Positions 1 to 13,004 of a DNA stretch of 13,190 nucleotides are shown one piece after another. The stretch is from Promethearchaeota archaeon (GTDB taxonomy: Archaea; Asgardarchaeota; Lokiarchaeia; Sigyniarchaeales; SOKP01), in the NCBI GenBank assembly GCA_016926735.1, contig JAFGOA010000235.1:1-13190 (forward strand). Reading direction: 5' to 3'. How positions within the stretch are numbered: position 1 is the stretch's first letter; each line of letters starts with the position of its first letter. The notes under the pieces were generated by a model, which worked only from the letters and a program-made list of their open reading frames with translations, made no database searches and was not told the origin of the DNA. The position numbers and the translations under genes were made by a program.

Positions 1-245
1 AGGACTTTCGAATAGACCCATTTATATTCTGGGTATTGTTTTTTCAATATTGGTAAGGTTTTTGATTGATCATTATATGTAATATAGCTACGCTGTTCTT
101 TTGGTTTCATTTTATTATCCTTCCAATTTTGAATACGCTGCGCTAACGCAAAATTAAAGATAAGGCGGCATTTTTCAGAGAAGACCCACAGAAGGTGTTC
201 TTGCTCCTCTGAGGGATATATTCGTATTTTTTGCGTAAGCTTCAT
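1..245 (-). CDS. tnpB: IS200/IS605-family RNA-guided nuclease TnpB, N-terminal part (runs off the left edge of the window)
   Basis: Not in the ORF track. Manual translation of the minus strand from the ATG at 245 is open to the window edge: MKLTQKIRIYPSEEQEHLLWVFSEKCRLIFNFALAQRIQNWKDNKMKPKEQRSYITYNDQSKTLPILKKQYPEYKWVYSKV. The pattern K-I-R-I-Y-P..EQ...CR..(F/Y)N.AL..R followed by LK..YPEY..VYS is the typical HTH_OrfB_IS605 N-terminus. The RuvC and Zn-finger domains lie outside the window. Confidence 0.9.
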   Translation of the reverse strand, partial: MKLTQKIRIYPSEEQEHLLWVFSEKCRLIFNFALAQRIQNWKDNKMKPKEQRSYITYNDQSKTLPILKKQYPEYKWVYSKV

Positions 246-3840: not shown

Positions 3841-4392
3841 TTATTCAATTTCATTAATTATTAAATATTCTTTTAGTGCAACAGCACTTATAATTAAATA
3901 ATACAGAATTTGATAACAATTTGGAGATATAAATATAATCCATAAGACGAAAACGTACAAATCAACATAAAATTTATCTTGAATAAGCTCAATAAAAGAT
4001 AATTCGTTCATTGAGTCTTTATAATTACCAATTTGTAATTGATAAATTAGATTTACTTTTATTATGATAATAAGCAATGTAAGAACACTAATAAGAAAAA
4101 TGTTTTTTAAAAGCTCTTTATCGTTTATTTGCCTCGGTGACAATTTAATTAATAATATCGCTTGGATGAAAAGATATATGTTTATTAAAAAGAGAAAAAT
4201 CCATAAAATTGTCGTAGATAAATCAACAACATTAAGATCAAAGATATATAAAAATAATATTTTTGTTGCTCCATCTAATGTAATAGGTCTTGTAATTAAT
4301 AAAAAGAAAAAAATTGTTTCGAATATTAATAAAATTAAAAAGAAATATCCTCCAAAAAATCTTAATTTTTTTATAATGTCTTTTACTTCCAT
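3841..4392 (-). CDS. Hypothetical integral membrane protein (about 4 TM helices)
   Basis: 183 aa with four long hydrophobic segments. Convergent with tfb. No family motif recognised. Confidence 0.7.
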   Translation of the reverse strand: MEVKDIIKKLRFFGGYFFLILLIFETIFFFLLITRPITLDGATKILFLYIFDLNVVDLSTTILWIFLFLINIYLFIQAILLIKLSPRQINDKELLKNIFLISVLTLLIIIIKVNLIYQLQIGNYKDSMNELSFIELIQDKFYVDLYVFVLWIIFISPNCYQILYYLIISAVALKEYLIINEIE

Positions 4393-4559: not shown

Positions 4560-5522
4560 TTGACAGAAGAAAATCAAGATAGTAAAAAAGAAAAAATAGA
4601 CTGTGCTCATGCTAATGTTGGAATGCATGATGGTTTTATGGTATGTCAAGATTGTGGATTAATATTAAAAGATGAAATTTTCTTTACTCAAGAGAATTAT
4701 AAAAAAGAAGATTATTATGATATTCAAAGAAAATATGAAAGAGAAATAAAAAGTAAAGATTCTAGAGCTATTCAAAATCCTTTAATTAAACAAAAATATG
4801 AAAAAATTAAACTTATAGATAAATGGTTCAGAGATAACTCTAGAAATTTTATTGAACAAAAAAAAACTCTTGATTTATTAAAAAGTTATAATATAGGATT
4901 AGATATAGATAAAGTAAAAATTCAACAAATTAAAGATAGATATACAAAATACATTCGAAAATATAAGAAATCTTATCAAAACATGGTTATTATATTTTTA
5001 GCAATCGTTTGGATGGAAATTAAGGATTTAACAAATATAAGACTTGAAGAGTTTATTGATATTTCCAATAATTTAGGACATAAAATTAATAAAAAAATGC
5101 TTAATAATGCTATGCTTAAGCTTTTAAAATCTGAAAATAAAAGAAAATCCAACCTAATTAATACAGAAGACCTCGAAAAACAAATAAAGAATAAAATTAA
5201 AATTCTATTTCAGAAGAATCTTAATGATATATCGTTAGAAGATATCATAAAATTTGATATTAACAAAGAAGAATTTAATAGATTAAAAATTGAAATGCAA
5301 TTAATATTAGCACAAATACTAAAGAAAATTGACTATGAACAAATAAAAAATCTCAATTATAAAGCATTTACTGCAGGTCTTATTTATTTTATTAGCCAGA
5401 CTTTGAACCCTAAATATAAAAGGATTTTTATTCAAAGTTTGATAGAAAAAATCACAAAATTTTCTAGTACCACAATCAGAAAAAAATATCATATTCTTAT
5501 GTCAATTTTAGGAGATCCATAA
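4560..5522 (+). CDS. Divergent TFB/TFIIB-like protein (Zn ribbon plus degenerate cyclin-fold repeats), TTG start
   Basis: N-terminal C15-A-H17-x11-C29-Q-D-C32-G ribbon. The segment FLAIVWMEIK..NIRLEEFIDIS aligns by eye to TFB repeat 1, and NYKAFTAGLIYFIS...IQSLIEKITKFSSTTIRKKY aligns to TFB repeat 2/HTH. Length (320 aa) is TFB-like. Confidence 0.65.
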   Translation: MTEENQDSKKEKIDCAHANVGMHDGFMVCQDCGLILKDEIFFTQENYKKEDYYDIQRKYEREIKSKDSRAIQNPLIKQKYEKIKLIDKWFRDNSRNFIEQKKTLDLLKSYNIGLDIDKVKIQQIKDRYTKYIRKYKKSYQNMVIIFLAIVWMEIKDLTNIRLEEFIDISNNLGHKINKKMLNNAMLKLLKSENKRKSNLINTEDLEKQIKNKIKILFQKNLNDISLEDIIKFDINKEEFNRLKIEMQLILAQILKKIDYEQIKNLNYKAFTAGLIYFISQTLNPKYKRIFIQSLIEKITKFSSTTIRKKYHILMSILGDP

Positions 5523-5679: not shown

Positions 5680-8514
5680 ATGTCATTAAAAAATACAAAT
5701 GAAAAACTACCCTTTTATGCTAAAAAAATAGATGCTTTAATAGAAGAACTCCAATCAGATAATAATAAAGGTTTATCTGATGATCAATTAGAGAAAAAAT
5801 ATTTACAATATGGATATAATGAATTACCTGATGTAAAAAAAAATCTTTGGAGAATATATTTAGCACCAATATTTAATTTTCTCATTCTCATTCTTATTAT
5901 ATCTGGAATATTAATAATTATTCTTGGTTCAGCATCTGAAACTATAATAACATTTGTAGTTATATTTATAAATTCAATTACAGCTATAGTTCAACAATTT
6001 AGAGCACATAAAGCTTTAGATTCATTGAAAAAAATATCTTCCTTAAATTCAATTGTGATAAGAAATAATGAAGAAAAAGAAATTCCTTCAAAGAATTTAT
6101 TACCAGGAGATATTGTTTTAATAAACCAAGGGTCTAAAATACCTGCTGATGGTCGAATTATTGAATGTCATAATTTATCTATCAATGAAGCACCTCTTAC
6201 TGGAGAAAGTAAAGCAGTAGAAAAGAAAAATAATGTTTTTGATAATATTGAACTTCCCATTCAAAAGCAAAAAAATATGGTTTTTATGGGAACATATGTT
6301 CAAACAGGACGAGCAAAAATTATTATAACCGAAACAGGAATTAAAACAAAAATAGGAGAAATTTCAAATTCCCTCAATAAAATGGGAGCAATTGAAGAAA
6401 TTCCACTTACAAAAAAATTAAATAAACTTGGTTATTTTCTTGGTTTAATTGTAATAATAAATATGATTTTATTAGTTACTTTTAAACTTGTTATATTACA
6501 TTTACCAGTAGGTACAGCATTCACAAATTCCATAATTAGAGCTATGAATATAATGCCCGTTAACCTTCCTCTTTTAGTTACATTAGTTCTGATAACAGGA
6601 GTATTAAATATGGCTAAAAATGGAGTGATAATTAAAAATTTATCTTCAATAGAATCATTAGGAAGAGTATCAGTTATCTGTTCTGATAAAACAGGAACAA
6701 TTACAAAAAATGAAATGACAGTTGAAAAATTCTGGATTAATAATCTTGAATATGAAGTCTCAGGAACAGGTTATAATCCTGAAGGATATATTTATAATAA
6801 TGAATTAGAACATAATCTTAATTCTAATACAACATTTCATAAGTTTATTGAGTCTATGATCATAAATAATAATGCAAAACTAGTTTATGAAGATGTCAAG
6901 GTAAAATTTCAAGAAACAAAATTATTACCTATAAGAAAAGCTTTAGGATCTCCAACAGAAGCTTCCCTCCTTGTTCTTGCAGAAAAAATAGGAATTTTAC
7001 CCTATGACTTAAAAAATAATTTTGAAATTATAAAAGAATTTCCTTTTAATTCTGAATTAAAAAGAATGTCAACAATTTGTAAGGAAAATAATAATGATAA
7101 ATACACATTGTATTCTAAAGGAGCTCCAGAAATTATATTAAATTTATCTAGTTATATAGAAATTAATGGGAAAATAAATCAATTAAATGAAGAAATTAAG
7201 AAAGGAATTTTAGAAAATATTAATATAAAAACAACACAAGGATATAGAATTTTAGCAATAGCATACAGAAATTTAGAATATAAAAATCATTCAGAGAGAA
7301 ATAATTTAGAAAAAGAATTAATCTTCTTAGGATTCCTTTCTATAATAGACCCTCCTAGGATAGGTGTAAAAAATGCAGTTGAAAAATGTCATAGTGCTGA
7401 TATTAAAGTGGTTATGATTACAGGAGATCATCCAAATACAGCAAGAACCATAGCTAAAGAGATGGGAATATATAATCATGAAAATTTAGTAATTGAAGGA
7501 AAAGAAATAAAAGCATTGGATAAGAAATCATTTGATAAAGTTACAGTATTTGCTAGGGTTGCTCCATCAGATAAGGAATACATCATTAAGGAATATCAAA
7601 AAGAAAAAAAAATTGTAGCTATGACTGGGGATGGAATAAATGATGTTCTTGCCTTAAAATTGGCAAATTGTGGTATAGCTATGGGTATTACGGGTACAGA
7701 TGTAGCTAAAGAAACTTCAGATATGGTCATTTCTGATGATAACTTTATATCTATCAAAAAAGGTGTTAAAATAGGGAGAGGATTATTTTCAAAAATTAGA
7801 GTTATAATCTACTTTTTTATATGTTTAAATATTTTAGAAGGAGTTATTATGTTCTCTTATGAATTTAATCCTACATTTGCTCTTTTTAATTCTAATTGGC
7901 AACATATATATATTTTTACTATAGCTCATTCATTTACTTCTTTAGCTTTAGTTATTGATATATCTCCTAAAGATATTATGAAAGAACCTCCTCGTAATGA
8001 AGAAGAACTATTAAACCGAAATACATTAATAATGTTATTAATACAGGCAATCATAATAGGTATTAGTTTGGTATTAGCTTTAGAATTAACATTAAATGGT
8101 GTAATTCCCTTAAATGAGTGGAATTTAGATCCAAATCTTAGCTATCTTAATGGAGTTATTCCTATAGAACAAAAAGCAAGAACTATGTTCATGACAACCT
8201 TATTTCTTTCTGAAACTATGTTTATTTGGACTTTCAGAAGACCTAATAAATCAATATTTAAAAGTATTAAAGAAGAATTTTCAAAGTCTTTATTTTTTGC
8301 TTGTATTTTTACTCTTTCAATACATATTTTGCTAGTAAATTTCTCCAATGGAATAAACACAGTAATTAATGATGATTTAGGATTAGATTTCCAACTTAAT
8401 TTCATATTTTTATCCTTAACAGATTGGTTAATTTGTATTGGTTTCGCAATTTTCAGTATTCTACTAATAGAACTCTTTAAATATTTCTTTAGAAAAAAAA
8501 AAATTATATTCTAA
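5680..8514 (+). CDS. P-type ATPase, P2-like architecture, non-canonical transport site (paralog 1)
   Basis: YGYNEL, PGD, PAD, TGES, CSDKTGT (phospho-Asp336), GSPTE, PFNSELKRMS, KGAPE, DPPR, MITGD, FARV, MTGDGIND and a hydrophobicity pattern consistent with 10 TM helices. M4 reads PVNLP instead of PEGLP. Confidence 0.95.
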   Translation: MSLKNTNEKLPFYAKKIDALIEELQSDNNKGLSDDQLEKKYLQYGYNELPDVKKNLWRIYLAPIFNFLILILIISGILIIILGSASETIITFVVIFINSITAIVQQFRAHKALDSLKKISSLNSIVIRNNEEKEIPSKNLLPGDIVLINQGSKIPADGRIIECHNLSINEAPLTGESKAVEKKNNVFDNIELPIQKQKNMVFMGTYVQTGRAKIIITETGIKTKIGEISNSLNKMGAIEEIPLTKKLNKLGYFLGLIVIINMILLVTFKLVILHLPVGTAFTNSIIRAMNIMPVNLPLLVTLVLITGVLNMAKNGVIIKNLSSIESLGRVSVICSDKTGTITKNEMTVEKFWINNLEYEVSGTGYNPEGYIYNNELEHNLNSNTTFHKFIESMIINNNAKLVYEDVKVKFQETKLLPIRKALGSPTEASLLVLAEKIGILPYDLKNNFEIIKEFPFNSELKRMSTICKENNNDKYTLYSKGAPEIILNLSSYIEINGKINQLNEEIKKGILENINIKTTQGYRILAIAYRNLEYKNHSERNNLEKELIFLGFLSIIDPPRIGVKNAVEKCHSADIKVVMITGDHPNTARTIAKEMGIYNHENLVIEGKEIKALDKKSFDKVTVFARVAPSDKEYIIKEYQKEKKIVAMTGDGINDVLALKLANCGIAMGITGTDVAKETSDMVISDDNFISIKKGVKIGRGLFSKIRVIIYFFICLNILEGVIMFSYEFNPTFALFNSNWQHIYIFTIAHSFTSLALVIDISPKDIMKEPPRNEEELLNRNTLIMLLIQAIIIGISLVLALELTLNGVIPLNEWNLDPNLSYLNGVIPIEQKARTMFMTTLFLSETMFIWTFRRPNKSIFKSIKEEFSKSLFFACIFTLSIHILLVNFSNGINTVINDDLGLDFQLNFIFLSLTDWLICIGFAIFSILLIELFKYFFRKKKIIF

Positions 8515-8539
8515 AAAACCTTTTTTTCTAAAATTTTTT

Positions 8540-8558
8540 AAAGAAAATTTATTATAGT
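8540..8558 (+). promoter_or_regulatory. Candidate BRE-TATA upstream of ATPase paralog 2
   Basis: Purine run AAAGAAAA followed by TTTTATTATAG, just after T-tracts (8521-8539) that could terminate paralog 1. The AT-rich background weakens the call. Confidence 0.3.
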
Positions 8559-8640
8559 CTTATTATAAAACATTTTTTGAATAATATAATATAGAAAAAT
8601 TATTTTTTTAAGATAAAAAAAGATTTAGGGAAGATCTTAT

Positions 8641-11523
8641 ATGGAAAAAAATTATTACAATTTAGAACTCGGAGTAATATATGACGATTTAAAAACAAAT
8701 CCAAATACAGGTTTGACTGAGGAACAAGCCAAAGATAGATTAAAAAATTTGGGTTATAATGAACTTCCTAAAGTCTCTAGAGGATTTATAAAAATATATT
8801 TATCACCTCTATTTAATTGGCTAATTGTCATCTATTTAGGGGGGGCATTATTATTGTTTTTATCTAATTTTCTTAATCCATCTGGAGGAAGTAGCTTTAT
8901 AATCATTGGCGTAACTCTGGGGGTAGTCATATTAAATTGCTTAGTTGCTATAATACAACAGTTTCGAGCAACTAAAAAGTTAAAAGCATTAAGAGAATTA
9001 TCAGCACCTACTACAAAAGTAATTAGAAATGGTCAAAAAAAGGAAATTCTTACAAGAGAATTAGTTGTTGGAGATTTATTGACATTATCTCAAGGAGATC
9101 GTATACCTGCTGATTCAAGGATTATTAAAAGTAATAATTTTGAGGTAAATGAAGCATCTTTAACAGGAGAAAGTGAAGTAGTAAGAAAAGTATCAGATGG
9201 TCGTTTTCTTGAAGGAATATTACCTATTCAGGATAGAAAAAATATGCTTTTTTATGGAACATTTATAACAATGGGAAATGGATTAGCAATAGCAGTTAAG
9301 ACAGGAGCAGATACAGAGATTGGTCAAATATCTAAAGGATTGGAAGAAGCAGGAACAAGTGAAATACCAATTAGAAAAAAAATGAATAATTTTGGAAAGT
9401 GGATAGGTATAGGTGTTTTATTATTATGGTTTATTATTTTTATATTCAAACTTATTACAGATTTAGCTAGTGGAATTGAAACCGATATCCAAGCAGAATT
9501 TTTTAAAAGTCTTAATTCTGCATTGGATTTATTACCAATGACTATCCCACTTCTAACAACCTTAATATTAGTTACTGGAGTTCTAGCGATGGCTCATCAA
9601 GGAGTTATAATTAGAAACCTAGCTTCAGTAGATAGTTTAGGACGGGTTAGTGTTGTCTGTTCTGATAAGACAGGAACTTTAACAAAAAATCAAATGTGTG
9701 TTCAGAATATTTGGAGTAATGGTTCTATCTTTAAAGTTACAGGTTCTGGTTATACTCCAGAAGGTAATATTATAAAAATGGATGATCCAAGAAATCCTCA
9801 ATATGTAAAACACATAGATGATTATATATATCTAAAATTAATCTTAATTTCAGGTTTTTTAAATAATAATTCTGCTTTAGTAAAATCTGAGATTGAGACT
9901 TCTGGAAGAGATATCAAAGTTCTAGATAATTGGAAAGTAATTGGTTCTCCCACTGAAGGTGCATTAGTAGTACTTTTTCAAAAATCTATGGGTGATTATT
10001 TATTAGAAGATTATAAGCTCATAGAAGAATTCCCATTTGATTCTTCTCTTAAGAGAATGACTAAGATTTATAGAAAAGATGACCAATTTTTTTCATTTAC
10101 TAAAGGAGCAAGTGAAATTTTAATTCCTAAATGTACAAAAATTTATTATAAAGATACAGAAATCGAATTTATTGATAAACTGAAAGAAGAAGTTCAAAAT
10201 AATATATTAAAATACGCCTCTCAAGGATATCGAATTTTAAGTCTATGTTATAAGAAATTTTTTATGATGCCTCATCATGAACAAGGAGAAAGAGACCAAT
10301 TTGAATCAGAACTAACATATTTAGGATTTGTAACTATTCTAGATCCCCCAAGAGAAGGTGTCAATGATTCAGTATTACAATGCCGTAATGCTGGTGTTGA
10401 TGTAATTATGATTACGGGTGATTCTACAATAACGGCAAAAGCGATAGGAAGTCAAATTTCAATTATGAATACAATTGAGGATAAAGTGGCTGAAGGAAAA
10501 GATGTTAATAATATTGAATCATTTGACGAATTTAGAAAAATCAAAGTCTTTGCTAGAGTATCTCCAAAGCATAAAGAAGATATAATAAAACGCTATCAAG
10601 AAAAGAAAAAAGTAGTAGCGATGACGGGAGATGGAGTTAATGATACTTTAGCATTGAATATGGCAGATTGTGGAATAGCGATGGGTATCCAAGGAACTGA
10701 TGTTGCGAAGGAAGCATCAGATATGATTATTTCAGATGATTCATTTACATCTATAGTTAAAGGAATTCATCAGGGCAGAGGAATTTTTGCTAAAATCCGT
10801 GCCATAGTATTTTTCTTTATATGTATAAATGTTTTTGAGGGACTAGTTCAATTTATCTTAGCAGTCATATTAGACCTTCCTTATTGGGTCGATCCGAAAT
10901 CACCCTTCTATTGGCAATGGATTTTCTTAACTATCACATTGCATATACTACCTGGGTTTGTTTTAACTTTTGATACTATTTCTGATGATGTTATGAAAGA
11001 GAAACCAAGAGATTCTGAAGAGATCCTAAGTAAAAAAACATTATTTTTAATGATTTCATTTGGAATACTATTATCTATCTGTATGATATTAACATATTTC
11101 TTATCTTATACTGAGATATACCCTGTAACATATGAAAATTATGCTTTTGGAGAAGCTTCAGGATATTTTGATCCCGCATTTTATAAGGAAACGAAAGCAC
11201 TAACTATGCTAATGCTTACTTTATTTTTCTGTGAAAATCTTCTCGTTTGGCAAATAAGAAGACCAAATAAATCATTATTTAAAAGTATAAAAAAAGATGG
11301 AACAAAATTTATGATCTTTACCCCATTATTTTTATTTTTTATATTTGCTGCATTGATGTACATTCCAAATATTCAATTAGAATTAAATGATTGGGGATTT
11401 CCTTTTAGATTTATGTTATTAACAGGAATGGATTGGCTTGTGTGTATCTTGATATCACTTATATGTATTTTAGGTTTTGAACTAATAAAATATATAGCTA
11501 GAAGAAAAAATATTATATTTTAA
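8641..11523 (+). CDS. P-type ATPase, P2-like architecture, non-canonical transport site (paralog 2)
   Basis: LGYNEL, PAD, TGES, CSDKTGT (phospho-Asp342), GSPTE, PFDSSLKRMT, KGASE, DPPR, MITGD, FARV, MTGDGVND. M4 reads PMTIP. Confidence 0.95.
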   Translation: MEKNYYNLELGVIYDDLKTNPNTGLTEEQAKDRLKNLGYNELPKVSRGFIKIYLSPLFNWLIVIYLGGALLLFLSNFLNPSGGSSFIIIGVTLGVVILNCLVAIIQQFRATKKLKALRELSAPTTKVIRNGQKKEILTRELVVGDLLTLSQGDRIPADSRIIKSNNFEVNEASLTGESEVVRKVSDGRFLEGILPIQDRKNMLFYGTFITMGNGLAIAVKTGADTEIGQISKGLEEAGTSEIPIRKKMNNFGKWIGIGVLLLWFIIFIFKLITDLASGIETDIQAEFFKSLNSALDLLPMTIPLLTTLILVTGVLAMAHQGVIIRNLASVDSLGRVSVVCSDKTGTLTKNQMCVQNIWSNGSIFKVTGSGYTPEGNIIKMDDPRNPQYVKHIDDYIYLKLILISGFLNNNSALVKSEIETSGRDIKVLDNWKVIGSPTEGALVVLFQKSMGDYLLEDYKLIEEFPFDSSLKRMTKIYRKDDQFFSFTKGASEILIPKCTKIYYKDTEIEFIDKLKEEVQNNILKYASQGYRILSLCYKKFFMMPHHEQGERDQFESELTYLGFVTILDPPREGVNDSVLQCRNAGVDVIMITGDSTITAKAIGSQISIMNTIEDKVAEGKDVNNIESFDEFRKIKVFARVSPKHKEDIIKRYQEKKKVVAMTGDGVNDTLALNMADCGIAMGIQGTDVAKEASDMIISDDSFTSIVKGIHQGRGIFAKIRAIVFFFICINVFEGLVQFILAVILDLPYWVDPKSPFYWQWIFLTITLHILPGFVLTFDTISDDVMKEKPRDSEEILSKKTLFLMISFGILLSICMILTYFLSYTEIYPVTYENYAFGEASGYFDPAFYKETKALTMLMLTLFFCENLLVWQIRRPNKSLFKSIKKDGTKFMIFTPLFLFFIFAALMYIPNIQLELNDWGFPFRFMLLTGMDWLVCILISLICILGFELIKYIARRKNIIF

Positions 11524-11581: not shown

Positions 11582-12352
11582 TTATTTAAATCCTTGACAA
11601 AAAGAATTAAAATTTACCCCTAGGACTTCAGGATTATATCCTCCTTCCAATACTGCAAATCTTCTTCCATTTGATATTTTATTAGAGAATTTTTTAAGCA
11701 ATTTTCCAATTTTATTATAATCTTTTGGGAATAAAAGACCACCCCAATCTTCTATTCCTAGATCAAAACCAGCACTTACAGCAATTATATCAATATTATC
11801 TAATTTATTTAGATATTCTTTGATTTCAAATAAATACATATCTTTATCATTGGAATTTGGATTTAAAATTTTTGTTCTAAATTTTTTTTCTTTTTTCAAT
11901 ATAGTTACTGTTCCATCACCAAAATGAAAGTCAAAATCTAAAATGAAAGCTGATTTTATTTTTTTTTCAAAAAAAAGCTTTAATAGCGCTATAGCAATAT
12001 TATTAAAATAACAAAAACCCCAACAAGAATCTGAAGATGCATGATGACCTGGAGGTCTAATAACAGCAAAACTAGGATTGTTATTAAAAGCTTCCTCAGC
12101 AGCTTTAATTACGCCTCCAACAGAGAAAGATGCCAGTTTATATAACAAAGGATTTTTCTTATAATAATTCAGATGTTTTTTTGTATGTGCTCTAAGAATA
12201 TCCTCTTCTTTTGCAGATTCGGGTTTAATAATTTCATAATCGTTTAGATTATCTTTAATCATTTTTAAAATACTATCTAATCTTCCTTTTTCAGCAGCAG
12301 GATCGAGAGCATAATCTGAATTAAGAAAAATATCATCAAATATAATCTTCAT
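11582..12352 (-). CDS. Histone deacetylase/AcuC-family Zn-dependent deacetylase (compact form)
   Basis: Motifs RAH, RPPGHHA, GFCYFNN, DFDFHFGDGT (Zn ligands DxH), SAGFD and LEGGY. Confidence 0.93.
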   Translation of the reverse strand: MKIIFDDIFLNSDYALDPAAEKGRLDSILKMIKDNLNDYEIIKPESAKEEDILRAHTKKHLNYYKKNPLLYKLASFSVGGVIKAAEEAFNNNPSFAVIRPPGHHASSDSCWGFCYFNNIAIALLKLFFEKKIKSAFILDFDFHFGDGTVTILKKEKKFRTKILNPNSNDKDMYLFEIKEYLNKLDNIDIIAVSAGFDLGIEDWGGLLFPKDYNKIGKLLKKFSNKISNGRRFAVLEGGYNPEVLGVNFNSFCQGFK

Positions 12353-12413: not shown

Positions 12414-13004
12414 TTAAAAATTAATTGGCTTGCATAAAATTATTTTGAGTTTAAGATTCATAAATTCACTTGTAGGAGCTGATTTTATTAAACATGCAGT
12501 ATCAGCCCCACTTCCTGTACCAGCTATGCATATAATATCATTATCTAACGAGGATATTAACCCATTATCAACAACCATTGATGCAATTTCAATACAAACT
12601 TTAATTCCTTGACCAAATTGTTCTCTAATCACTTTAGCTAGTAAATCGACAAAGATCCAAGGTTGTTTATTAATTCTTAAACCACGTTCAATACCACTCA
12701 TAGAATGAGTACATGAAAGAAATTTCACACCTTTTTCTTTCATATCATTCATAAGGTTCTCATCAAATTCTTGTCTGAGTGAATTCCCAATAAAATAATA
12801 AGAATGCGTAACAATTATTAAATTAAAATCTTTTATATTAAATTTATTAAAAGCTAATTTTGCTGTTGTTCCTTTAGTACTAGCTACTACTATATCTTTA
12901 ATTTTATTTTCTTTTGCATATTTTAATGCTATATCCAGAGTTTTTTCTGTATTAATAGAACCGATTTTTTGAAAATATACCGTCTCTAATCTTATATCTT
13001 CCAT
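12414..13004 (-). CDS. Pyruvate kinase C-terminal alpha/beta-domain protein (COG1751/MTH1675-like, function unknown)
   Basis: YF..G..NT..TL..A, IVVASTKGTTA, IVTH, THSMSGIER, FGQGIKVCIEIASM..D.GLI, AGTGSGADTA and terminal ILCKP. Confidence 0.85.
   Translation of the reverse strand: MEDIRLETVYFQKIGSINTEKTLDIALKYAKENKIKDIVVASTKGTTAKLAFNKFNIKDFNLIIVTHSYYFIGNSLRQEFDENLMNDMKEKGVKFLSCTHSMSGIERGLRINKQPWIFVDLLAKVIREQFGQGIKVCIEIASMVVDNGLISSLDNDIICIAGTGSGADTACLIKSAPTSEFMNLKLKIILCKPINF

Follow-up and report, generated by a model that had tools for sequence, protein, structure and literature searches.

Contig JAFGOA010000235.1 of a Promethearchaeota archaeon encodes two neighbouring P-type ATPases, here called A and B, which probably belong to a distinct, mostly Asgard clade of rewired single-site pumps of a ligand other than Ca2+. 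The contig was analysed over its entire length of 13,190 bp (the window); its G+C content is about 20–31%, and the parent genome of 3.88 Mb is 99% complete. As part of the same explanation, A and B are probably two intact P-type ATPases of P2 architecture, predicted to be catalytically competent, and their clade is a candidate new P-type subfamily. The genes are arranged head to tail on the + strand, and their products align over the full length with 40% identity. The positions of the genes and of their phosphorylation and binding-site motifs, in membrane helices (M) 4, 5, 6 and 8, are:

5680..8514, + strand: gene A (P0001), P-type ATPase of P2 architecture, 944 residues; open reading frame with a translation without internal stops.
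6556..6570, + strand: A, motif P293-V-N295-L-P297 of the unwound M4 segment, replacing PEGLP; from the translation and HMMER alignment.
6685..6699, + strand: A, phosphorylation motif DKTGT with D336; from the translation.
7828..7839, + strand: A, M5 N717..E720; from ortholog conservation.
7927..7929, + strand: A, M6 H750, which takes the place of the Asp of Ca2+ pumps; from HMMER alignments and ortholog conservation.
8212..8214, + strand: A, M8 E845; from ortholog conservation.
8641..11523, + strand: gene B (P0002), paralogous P-type ATPase, 960 residues; open reading frame with a translation without internal stops.
9535..9549, + strand: B, M4 motif P299-M-T301-I-P303; from the translation and alignment.
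9664..9678, + strand: B, phosphorylation motif DKTGT with D342; from the translation.
10828..10839, + strand: B, M5 N730..E733; from ortholog conservation.
10942..10944, + strand: B, M6 H768; from the A/B alignment and ortholog conservation.
11233..11235, + strand: B, M8 E865; from ortholog conservation.

Both proteins contain the Pfam domains Cation_ATPase_N, E1-E2_ATPase, Cation_ATPase, Hydrolase and Cation_ATPase_C, and they pass the cut-off of the P-type superfamily model TIGR01494 (HAD-IC; 62.3) with 296 bits for A and 258 bits for B. The motifs TGES, DKTGT, KGA, DPPR, TGD and GDGxND, which a preliminary description of the window had reported for both proteins, were all read in the translations. 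Because the catalytic motifs are intact, a normal E1/E2 cycle is expected. The possibility that A and B are decaying pseudogenes was rejected on the grounds of intact frames and invariant motifs.

The departure from known pumps is in the membrane. V294 of A and M300 of B each precede the phospho-Asp by 42 residues, a spacing given in the preliminary description that matches D336 and D342. In HMMER alignments to solved Ca2+ pumps, the segment PVNL of A pairs with PEAL of LMCA1, and IFTIAH pairs with INLVND of LMCA1 and INIIMD of SPCA1. Together with the alignment of A to B, these pairings place H750 and H768 at the position of the Ca2+-coordinating M6 Asp, as had been proposed. The M5 Asn and Glu of pumps carrying the PEGLP motif are matched by N717/E720 in A and N730/E733 in B, and E845 and E865 fall in a column that reads Glu or Gln in PEGLP pumps. 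Every coordinate and residue of the preliminary description was found to be correct. The SERCA residue numbers assigned to the site positions of A and B are presumed equivalents. In the SERCA frame, the M4 Glu and M6 Asn are specific to site II, the M5 Asn and Glu and the M8 Glu are specific to site I, and the M6 Asp presumably bridges the two sites. Read in this frame, the clade has probably dismantled site II, kept the ligands of site I, and exchanged the bridging Asp for His.

The altered site is conserved among orthologs drawn from 54 related loci and the window, which comprise 50 sequences of A and 43 of B. The first and second Pro of the M4 motif (P293 and P297), the M5 Asn (N717) and Glu (E720), the M6 His (H750) and the M8 Glu (E845) are present in 50/50 orthologs of A, as are their equivalents in 43/43 orthologs of B. 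The retention of the M5 and M8 residues had been claimed for the two proteins of the window and thus extends to all of their orthologs. The M4 Asn (N295) occurs in 50/50 A and 42/43 B orthologs. Position 294 is Ile in 47, Val in two, and Phe in one of the A orthologs, and the equivalent residue of B is Ile, Leu, or Met in 43/43. Among 120 close relatives of A, the motif reads PINLP in 117 and PVNLP in three. The sole exception to the M4 Asn is B of the window itself, which has Met-Thr at residues 300–301 (window 9538–9543), compared to [IL]-Asn in the other 42 of 43 B orthologs. Because of this exception, the preliminary description, which recognized the loss of the Glu and the gain of the His, missed the invariant Asn that follows the lost Glu.

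The signature extends beyond the orthologs. A search with B against 1.84 billion cluster representatives returned 78,851 homologs, and motifs were read in the best 150 of them. The first approximately 36 clusters, scoring 1021 to 512 bits, have P-[IVLWFM]-N-[ILF]-[PVI] instead of PEGLP, whereas nearly all of the remaining clusters among the best 150 have PEGLP. When 38 sequences of the clade were compared with 42 PEGLP sequences, only 12 positions separated the groups. Two of the 12 are located in the canonical binding site: N295, which is Gly in PEGLP pumps, and H750, which is Asp. The M6 column contains His in 37/38 clade members, and Asp in 41/42 PEGLP pumps and in 4/4 P3A pumps. Further separating positions are Q106 (Glu in PEGLP pumps) and P63 (Gln in PEGLP pumps) in M2/M1, and the last Pro of GDGxNDxP, which is Leu in the clade. 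The M5 residues are Asn in 34/38 and Glu in 38/38 clade members, and the M8 residue is Glu in 36/38, compared to Gln in 25 and Glu in 17 PEGLP pumps. The M6 Asn of Ca2+ pumps is variable in the clade. Defined by P-[hydrophobic]-N-[ILF]-[PVI] in M4, the M6 His, the M5 Asn and Glu, the M8 Glu, and monophyly, the clade includes A with all of these characters and B with all except the M4 Asn, replaced by Thr. Judged from the sequences, the signature is far beyond chance or decay, its residues being invariant or nearly so across orthologs and clade. A non-Glu M4 residue and an M6 His are conserved in both sets, and homologs do not carry random residues at these sites, which upholds the earlier proposal of selection rather than decay.

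The AlphaFold2 model of A, calculated from a 110-sequence alignment, has a predicted local distance difference test score (pLDDT) of 89.8, a predicted TM-score (pTM) of 0.86, and ten long membrane helices. Helix M4 of the model is broken at residues 290–295, that is, at the motif. The closest solved folds are those of LMCA1, SERCA, and SPCA1, with TM-scores of up to 0.84 for E2/E2P states. A search of a protein atlas returned generic P-type clusters only.

A phylogenetic tree was calculated with FastTree (LG+gamma) from 84 sequences and 890 columns and rooted with four Asgard P3A sequences scoring above the TIGR01647 cut-off; it contains no eukaryotic, P6 (CtpE), or FUPA references. The clade is monophyletic in this tree (38 tips, support 0.999), and the PEGLP, or Ca2+-type, set is its sister (support 0.805). 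The clade divides into a PINLV group, an A group (support 0.999 in its wider sense and 1.0 for the core), a group joining B and C types (support 0.98), and two basal groups, which have retained AAIP[WFV]NFP. A search for related loci starting from a PINLV-type member (P0139) returned no confirmed locus.

The subfamily models agree with this placement. The P2A cut-offs of TIGR01116 (703.4) and TIGR01522 (798.3) are missed by A, with 451 and 455 bits, and by B, with 414 and 458 bits; four other clade members score 396–522 bits on the P2A models, and PEGLP neighbours 630–821 bits. Scores on the P2B, P2C, and P2D models (TIGR01517, cut-off 507; TIGR01106, 946; TIGR01523, 645) are 388, 349, and 431 bits for A and 376, 359, and 421 bits for B, all below cut-off. 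The P3A model TIGR01647 (cut-off 615.5) gives 329 bits for A, 319 for B, and 311–364 across the clade, and the P3B Mg2+-ATPase model TIGR01524 (cut-off 610.75) gives 320 for A and 275 for B. The P4 model TIGR01652 (cut-off 431) is missed with 132 and 105 bits, and the A domain has TGES instead of DGET. The P5 model TIGR01657 (cut-off 618) is missed with 276 and 212 bits, and a single Pro precedes the M4 motif in place of PPxLP. Models of P1B pumps give merely 141–254 bits on clade members. A special kinship with P4 or P5 pumps was rejected, since the scores of the clade on their models are no higher than those of PEGLP pumps. The M4 motif of P5A pumps is given as PP[D/E]LPxE in the available excerpts of a 2023 review (PMC10654040). 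The suggestion that A and B represent an uncharacterised P-type clade is thus supported by the monophyly, by scores below the P2A–P2D, P3A, P3B, P4, and P5 cut-offs, and by the absence of a fit to P6/CtpE as described in the same excerpts.

The nearest solved and modelled relatives of the clade are Ca2+ pumps, source databases annotate its members as "Ca2+-transporting ATPase", and the M5 Asn and Glu and the M8 Glu of SERCA site I are retained. It could accordingly be argued that A and B are ordinary exporters of Ca2+, or of Ca2+ and Mn2+, with an unusual set of ligands. However, PEGL with its gating Glu is replaced by PVNLP in A and PMTIP in B, the M6 Asp is replaced by His in A, B, and the clade, and both acidic residues are gone clade-wide. 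The available excerpts of the review call the TM6 Asp of Ca2+ efflux pumps "omnipresent" and describe PEGL as characteristic of them (PMC10654040). Furthermore, the proteins fall 180–400 bits short of the P2A cut-offs, which PEGLP neighbours approach or exceed. The host genome also encodes three pumps of the PEGLP type and two with CPC (P1B), so that export of Ca2+ and of Cu/Zn-type ions is plausibly already covered. Ordinary Ca2+ export is therefore very unlikely, and A and B probably pump something else.

Members of the clade are widespread in Asgard archaea. A survey of 251 sampled genomes of the GTDB phylum of the window (match at E<=1e-170) detected a member in 165, including 68 of the 89 high-quality genomes. 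All A-type matches (>=53% identity) in this sample are inside the GTDB family of the window, f1, in which 51 of 54 genomes are positive, mostly with two matches. Other Asgard families mostly have a single copy with 39–45% identity; ten members from f4, f6, f11, f17, and f21 all belong to the C group or to a B-related group. According to the genome records, Ca. Lokiarchaeum ossiferum and a Promethearchaeum sp. metagenome-assembled genome also encode clade members. In family f17, a C-type member was recently duplicated in tandem (L070, G025:C86, 1187–4132 and 4574–7492), independently of the A–B pair.

A scan for the back-translated peptide MPINIPLLT, covering one genome per prokaryotic species, identified at least 119 stretches, the best 80 of which were examined. 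The context is that of a genuine M4 helix in 75 and a chance match in five of these 80. Most of the 75 are Asgard, or have merely an unspecific archaeal label, according to record titles; the groups named among the matches listed are Thor-, Hermod-, Odin-, Heimdall-, and Promethearchaeota, Ca. Lokiarchaeum ossiferum, Atabeyarchaeum, and Asgardarchaeum. Five matches listed have non-Asgard labels: two Nitrososphaeria (L079, L089), one Bathyarchaeia (L115), Dehalogenimonas, and "Aerophobetes". The Dehalogenimonas sp. member is on a complete chromosome (L149/L196). The member from the "Aerophobetes" contig appears B-like and may be mis-binned. The genuine non-Asgard members, from Dehalogenimonas, Nitrososphaeria, and Bathyarchaeia, have PINIP, and their occurrence suggests horizontal transfer.

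The distribution also bears on whether A and B are electrogenic proton pumps, in which a His/Glu relay would replace the Asp/Arg pair of P3A H+-ATPases. Like P3A pumps (PVALP in 4/4 Asgard P3A pumps), the clade has a hydrophobic residue in place of the M4 Glu. The M1/M2 access funnel is stripped of acidic residues, the buried pair of Glu residues and the His are titratable, and the genome of the window lacks a P3A pump. However, P3A pumps that pass TIGR01647 and have PVALP in M4 occur in nine of 61 sampled Asgard genomes (examples L063–L066), and all nine also have a member of the clade. The two are therefore not alternatives, and the clade is no simple substitute for P3A. The sites differ as well, since P3A pumps have Val and Gly in place of the M5 and M8 Glu (4/4). 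In addition, five invariant polar residues would exceed the needs of a proton relay, and the scores on TIGR01647 are far below its cut-off. A proton pump of this kind is thus unlikely.

According to the preferred explanation, that of single-site pumps of a ligand other than Ca2+, A and B would run through an ordinary E1/E2 phosphoenzyme cycle and move one ligand per turn. The ligand would be held in a single pocket centred on site I and formed by the M4 Asn, the M5 Asn and Glu, the M6 His, and the M8 Glu, which are predicted from sequence to converge there; it would be a non-Ca2+ cation that is not handled in the manner of SERCA. A and B would be old paralogs kept adjacent in one Asgard family, most likely as separate pumps that are co-expressed or have split functions.

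One His combined with two Glu and two Asn would suit octahedrally coordinated borderline metals better than Ca2+, Na+, or K+. A borderline divalent metal (Mn2+, Fe2+, Co2+, Ni2+, or Zn2+), bound by the His, two carboxylates, and two amides, is the leading candidate for the cargo, held with somewhat less than even confidence. Protons, or a monovalent cation coupled to H+ with the His titratable or serving as an internal counter-ion, are possible cargo but would not be the first expectation; another cation is an unlikely cargo, a lipid or organic head group an improbable one, and the remaining options are negligible in comparison. It may be, although this is put forward tentatively, that the clade is a family-level lineage centred on Asgard archaea with a ligand outside the known P2/P3 set (Ca2+, Mn2+, Na+, K+, H+, and Mg2+). 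Candidates for such a ligand are a transition metal, which the M6 His would bind in a pocket limited to site I, and, more boldly, a lipid or organic head group at P-I-N-L.

Several observations weigh against a metal pump with a site-I pocket. The loss of acidic residues from M1/M2 argues against a multivalent cation that enters from the cytoplasm; the proton or counter-ion role of the His, which is the main alternative to a metal, would fit this loss better. P3A and P4 pumps likewise have a hydrophobic residue in place of the lost Glu, so that this feature does not favour a metal. B of the window has Thr for the otherwise invariant Asn, a lineage-specific change. The M8 Glu is presumed to be equivalent to SERCA E908 on the basis of a MAFFT column. 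The neighbourhoods of A and B and of single-copy clade members gave no hints of the substrate, and a search of the whole window against Rfam (E<=1) returned no riboswitch and one chance-level match to a long non-coding RNA.

A lipid or another bulky organic substrate moved along M4, as in P4 and P5 pumps, would be compatible with the absence of acidic funnel residues and with the resemblance of P-I-N-L to P-I-S-L, the P4 motif. Moreover, a gene for a membrane protein of about 271 residues with a VTT/DedA domain (PF09335, 35.9 bits, cut-off 33.9) is located directly after A in nine of 53 loci (L012, L014, L015, L023, L027, L042, L048, L055, and L059); in those that extend to B, it separates the two pump genes. 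The VTT/DedA family is tied to lipid scrambling. However, the VTT gene is missing from the window and from the other 44 loci, and no Cdc50-like partner gene was seen in the related loci. The clade has TGES rather than DGET, and the buried Glu, Glu, and His are retained. Scores on the P4 model are 86–132 for the clade and 91–122 for PEGLP pumps, and those on the P5 model are 212–276 and 239–306, respectively. Transport of this type is highly doubtful; if true, it would represent the first prokaryotic pump that works like the eukaryote-only P4 and P5 pumps.

In 46 of the 53 related loci with A, the next gene in the same orientation is an ortholog of B. A contig end lies within 416 bp in six of the seven loci without B; in the seventh (L014), the 2,090 bp downstream of A do not contain B. 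The tandem is specific to the GTDB family of the window, and the clade extends more widely as single copies. Ten loci from one accession series, with A orthologs of 58–62% identity, are labelled Hermod-, Hod-, Thor-, and Odinarchaeota by the submitter; the labels conflict with the GTDB family tally, and the tandem is therefore treated as a feature of one family. Gaps between A and B are 95–203 bp in 32 related loci and 283–2847 bp in 14. A 179-residue C_GCAxxG_C_C protein is encoded directly after A in five loci (L020, L022, L028, L036, and L052); like the VTT gene, its gene is absent from the window.

Adjacency is the sole argument for the binding of A to B. An obligate A–B heteromer, which would be compatible with any of the cargoes, could explain why B follows A on the same strand and why both genes are present in most genomes of the family. 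However, the whole region from the gene for aldehyde:ferredoxin oxidoreductase (AFOR) to B is syntenic, so that adjacency is not peculiar to A and B; unrelated genes separate A from B in 13 loci with B in view; and other Asgard families have a single clade member. The two best matches to B in Ca. Lokiarchaeum ossiferum are 1.9 Mb apart. In view of the regional synteny, the inserted genes, and these distant copies, the tandem is no proof of functional coupling. We know of no P-type heterodimer of two catalytic subunits, and an obligate heteromer is improbable.

The surroundings of the pumps in the window have archaeal gene content (AFOR, TFIIB/TFB, and a histone-deacetylase-like protein) and include:

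3841..4392, - strand: very hydrophobic 183-residue protein without a family match, divergent from the TFB-like gene.
4560..5522, + strand: TFB-like 320-residue protein with an N-terminal CxxH..CxxC zinc ribbon, directly upstream of A.
8515..8640, + strand: 126-bp spacer between A and B with oligo-T runs after the stop codon of A and AT-rich, TATA-like stretches before B; from the sequence.

The syntenic order in family f1 is AFOR, TFB, small membrane protein, TFB-like protein, A, and B; among the 54 loci with A, including the window, AFOR is present in 26, TFB in 41, the membrane protein in 47, and the TFB-like protein in 50. The TFB-like protein is weakly similar to the neighbouring TFB (BLASTP E 5e-4), and its match to Pfam Zn_Ribbon_TF is below the cut-off. 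It is perhaps a diverged paralog of TFB and might act as a dedicated regulator. Its candidacy as a beta-subunit was rejected because of the TFB-like zinc ribbon and because its translation, read by eye, has no long hydrophobic stretch. A scan for promoters and terminators gave the same counts as shuffled sequence, with bacterial-type models that are unsuited to archaea.

Two genes convergent with B follow it in the window: one for a 256-residue histone-deacetylase-domain protein (11582–12352, - strand) and one for a 196-residue protein (12414–13004, - strand) with a sub-threshold match to the C-terminal domain of pyruvate kinase. A GNAT acetyltransferase is instead found downstream of B in 32 related loci. 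At the other end of the window, positions 3–245 (- strand) encode the N-terminal helix-turn-helix of an IS605 OrfB-type transposase that runs off the contig end, so that the contig probably breaks inside a mobile element. Neighbours of single-copy clade members are subtilase, PanB, Lon, and a redox protein in other Asgard families, and response regulators, a presenilin-like peptidase, UDG, and an ABC ATPase in Dehalogenimonas and Nitrososphaeria. Next after the Dehalogenimonas gene is a stand-alone receiver of the response-regulator type, with a PAS histidine kinase and two response regulators nearby.

P-type subfamilies have so far each matched a distinct substrate. The strictly conserved rewired site, carried by 165 of 251 sampled Asgard genomes, therefore points concretely to a possible new specificity among the archaea most closely related to eukaryotes. 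Since the proteins are single chains, they could be expressed and assayed directly. The available excerpts of the 2023 review list families P1–P6, with P6 as the sole addition since 1998, and expect more prokaryotic families (PMC10654040). The accessible part of a census of Asgard transporters mentions just a "putative Ca2+ ATPase (TC 3.A.3.2.21)" and copper pumps. Within the accessible portions of full-text literature on Asgard P-type ATPases, FUPA, flippases, and the motif strings, no description of the signature was found; an earlier "uncharacterised" TCDB label for bacterial members is possible.

The clade resembles several known families in part. With P3A H+-ATPases it shares a conserved M2 Asn and a hydrophobic side chain in place of the M4 Glu; P3A pumps differ in having the M6 Asp, their proton acceptor, and lacking the M5 and M8 Glu, and they form the outgroup of the tree. 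P4 flippases have an M4 motif P-I-x-L with a small polar residue after the Ile (PISL), as does the clade, but they have DGET, and the clade has no gene for a beta-subunit. P1B-4 pumps of the sCoaT type likewise have a membrane His at the transport site. Their topology is that of P1B pumps with an SPC-type M4, and they are a family separate from the clade. The available excerpts of the review describe the His of a P1B-4 pump as an internal counter-ion and place the substrate head group of P4 flippases, a family unique to eukaryotes, at the canonical M4 site (PMC10654040). According to the same excerpts, P6 (CtpE) is a prokaryotic P2-like lineage that lacks the TM6 Asp, as the clade does; however, it keeps PEGL, has Ile in TM6, and is without the N-domain Lys, whereas the clade lacks PEGL, has His in TM6, and contains KGA, which sets it apart from P6 by description (PMC10654040).

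The closest known systems are the P2A Ca2+-ATPases LMCA1, SERCA1a, and SPCA1, of which LMCA1 is the best sequence match to A (E 4e-124). They have the domain order, the ten-helix fold, and the catalytic motifs in common with the clade, as well as the M5 Asn and Glu and the M6 Gln and Pro. By contrast, the clade has P-[ILV]-N-[IL]-P for PEGLP, His for the M6 Asp, Leu for the terminal residue of GDGxNDxP, and Gln for the M2 Glu. In the single-site P2 pumps known so far, it is site I that is lost and site II that is retained. The clade, in which site II would be gone and the ligands of site I kept, would be the reverse of these pumps, and this reversed pattern provides a natural test of how the chemistry of the site determines selectivity.

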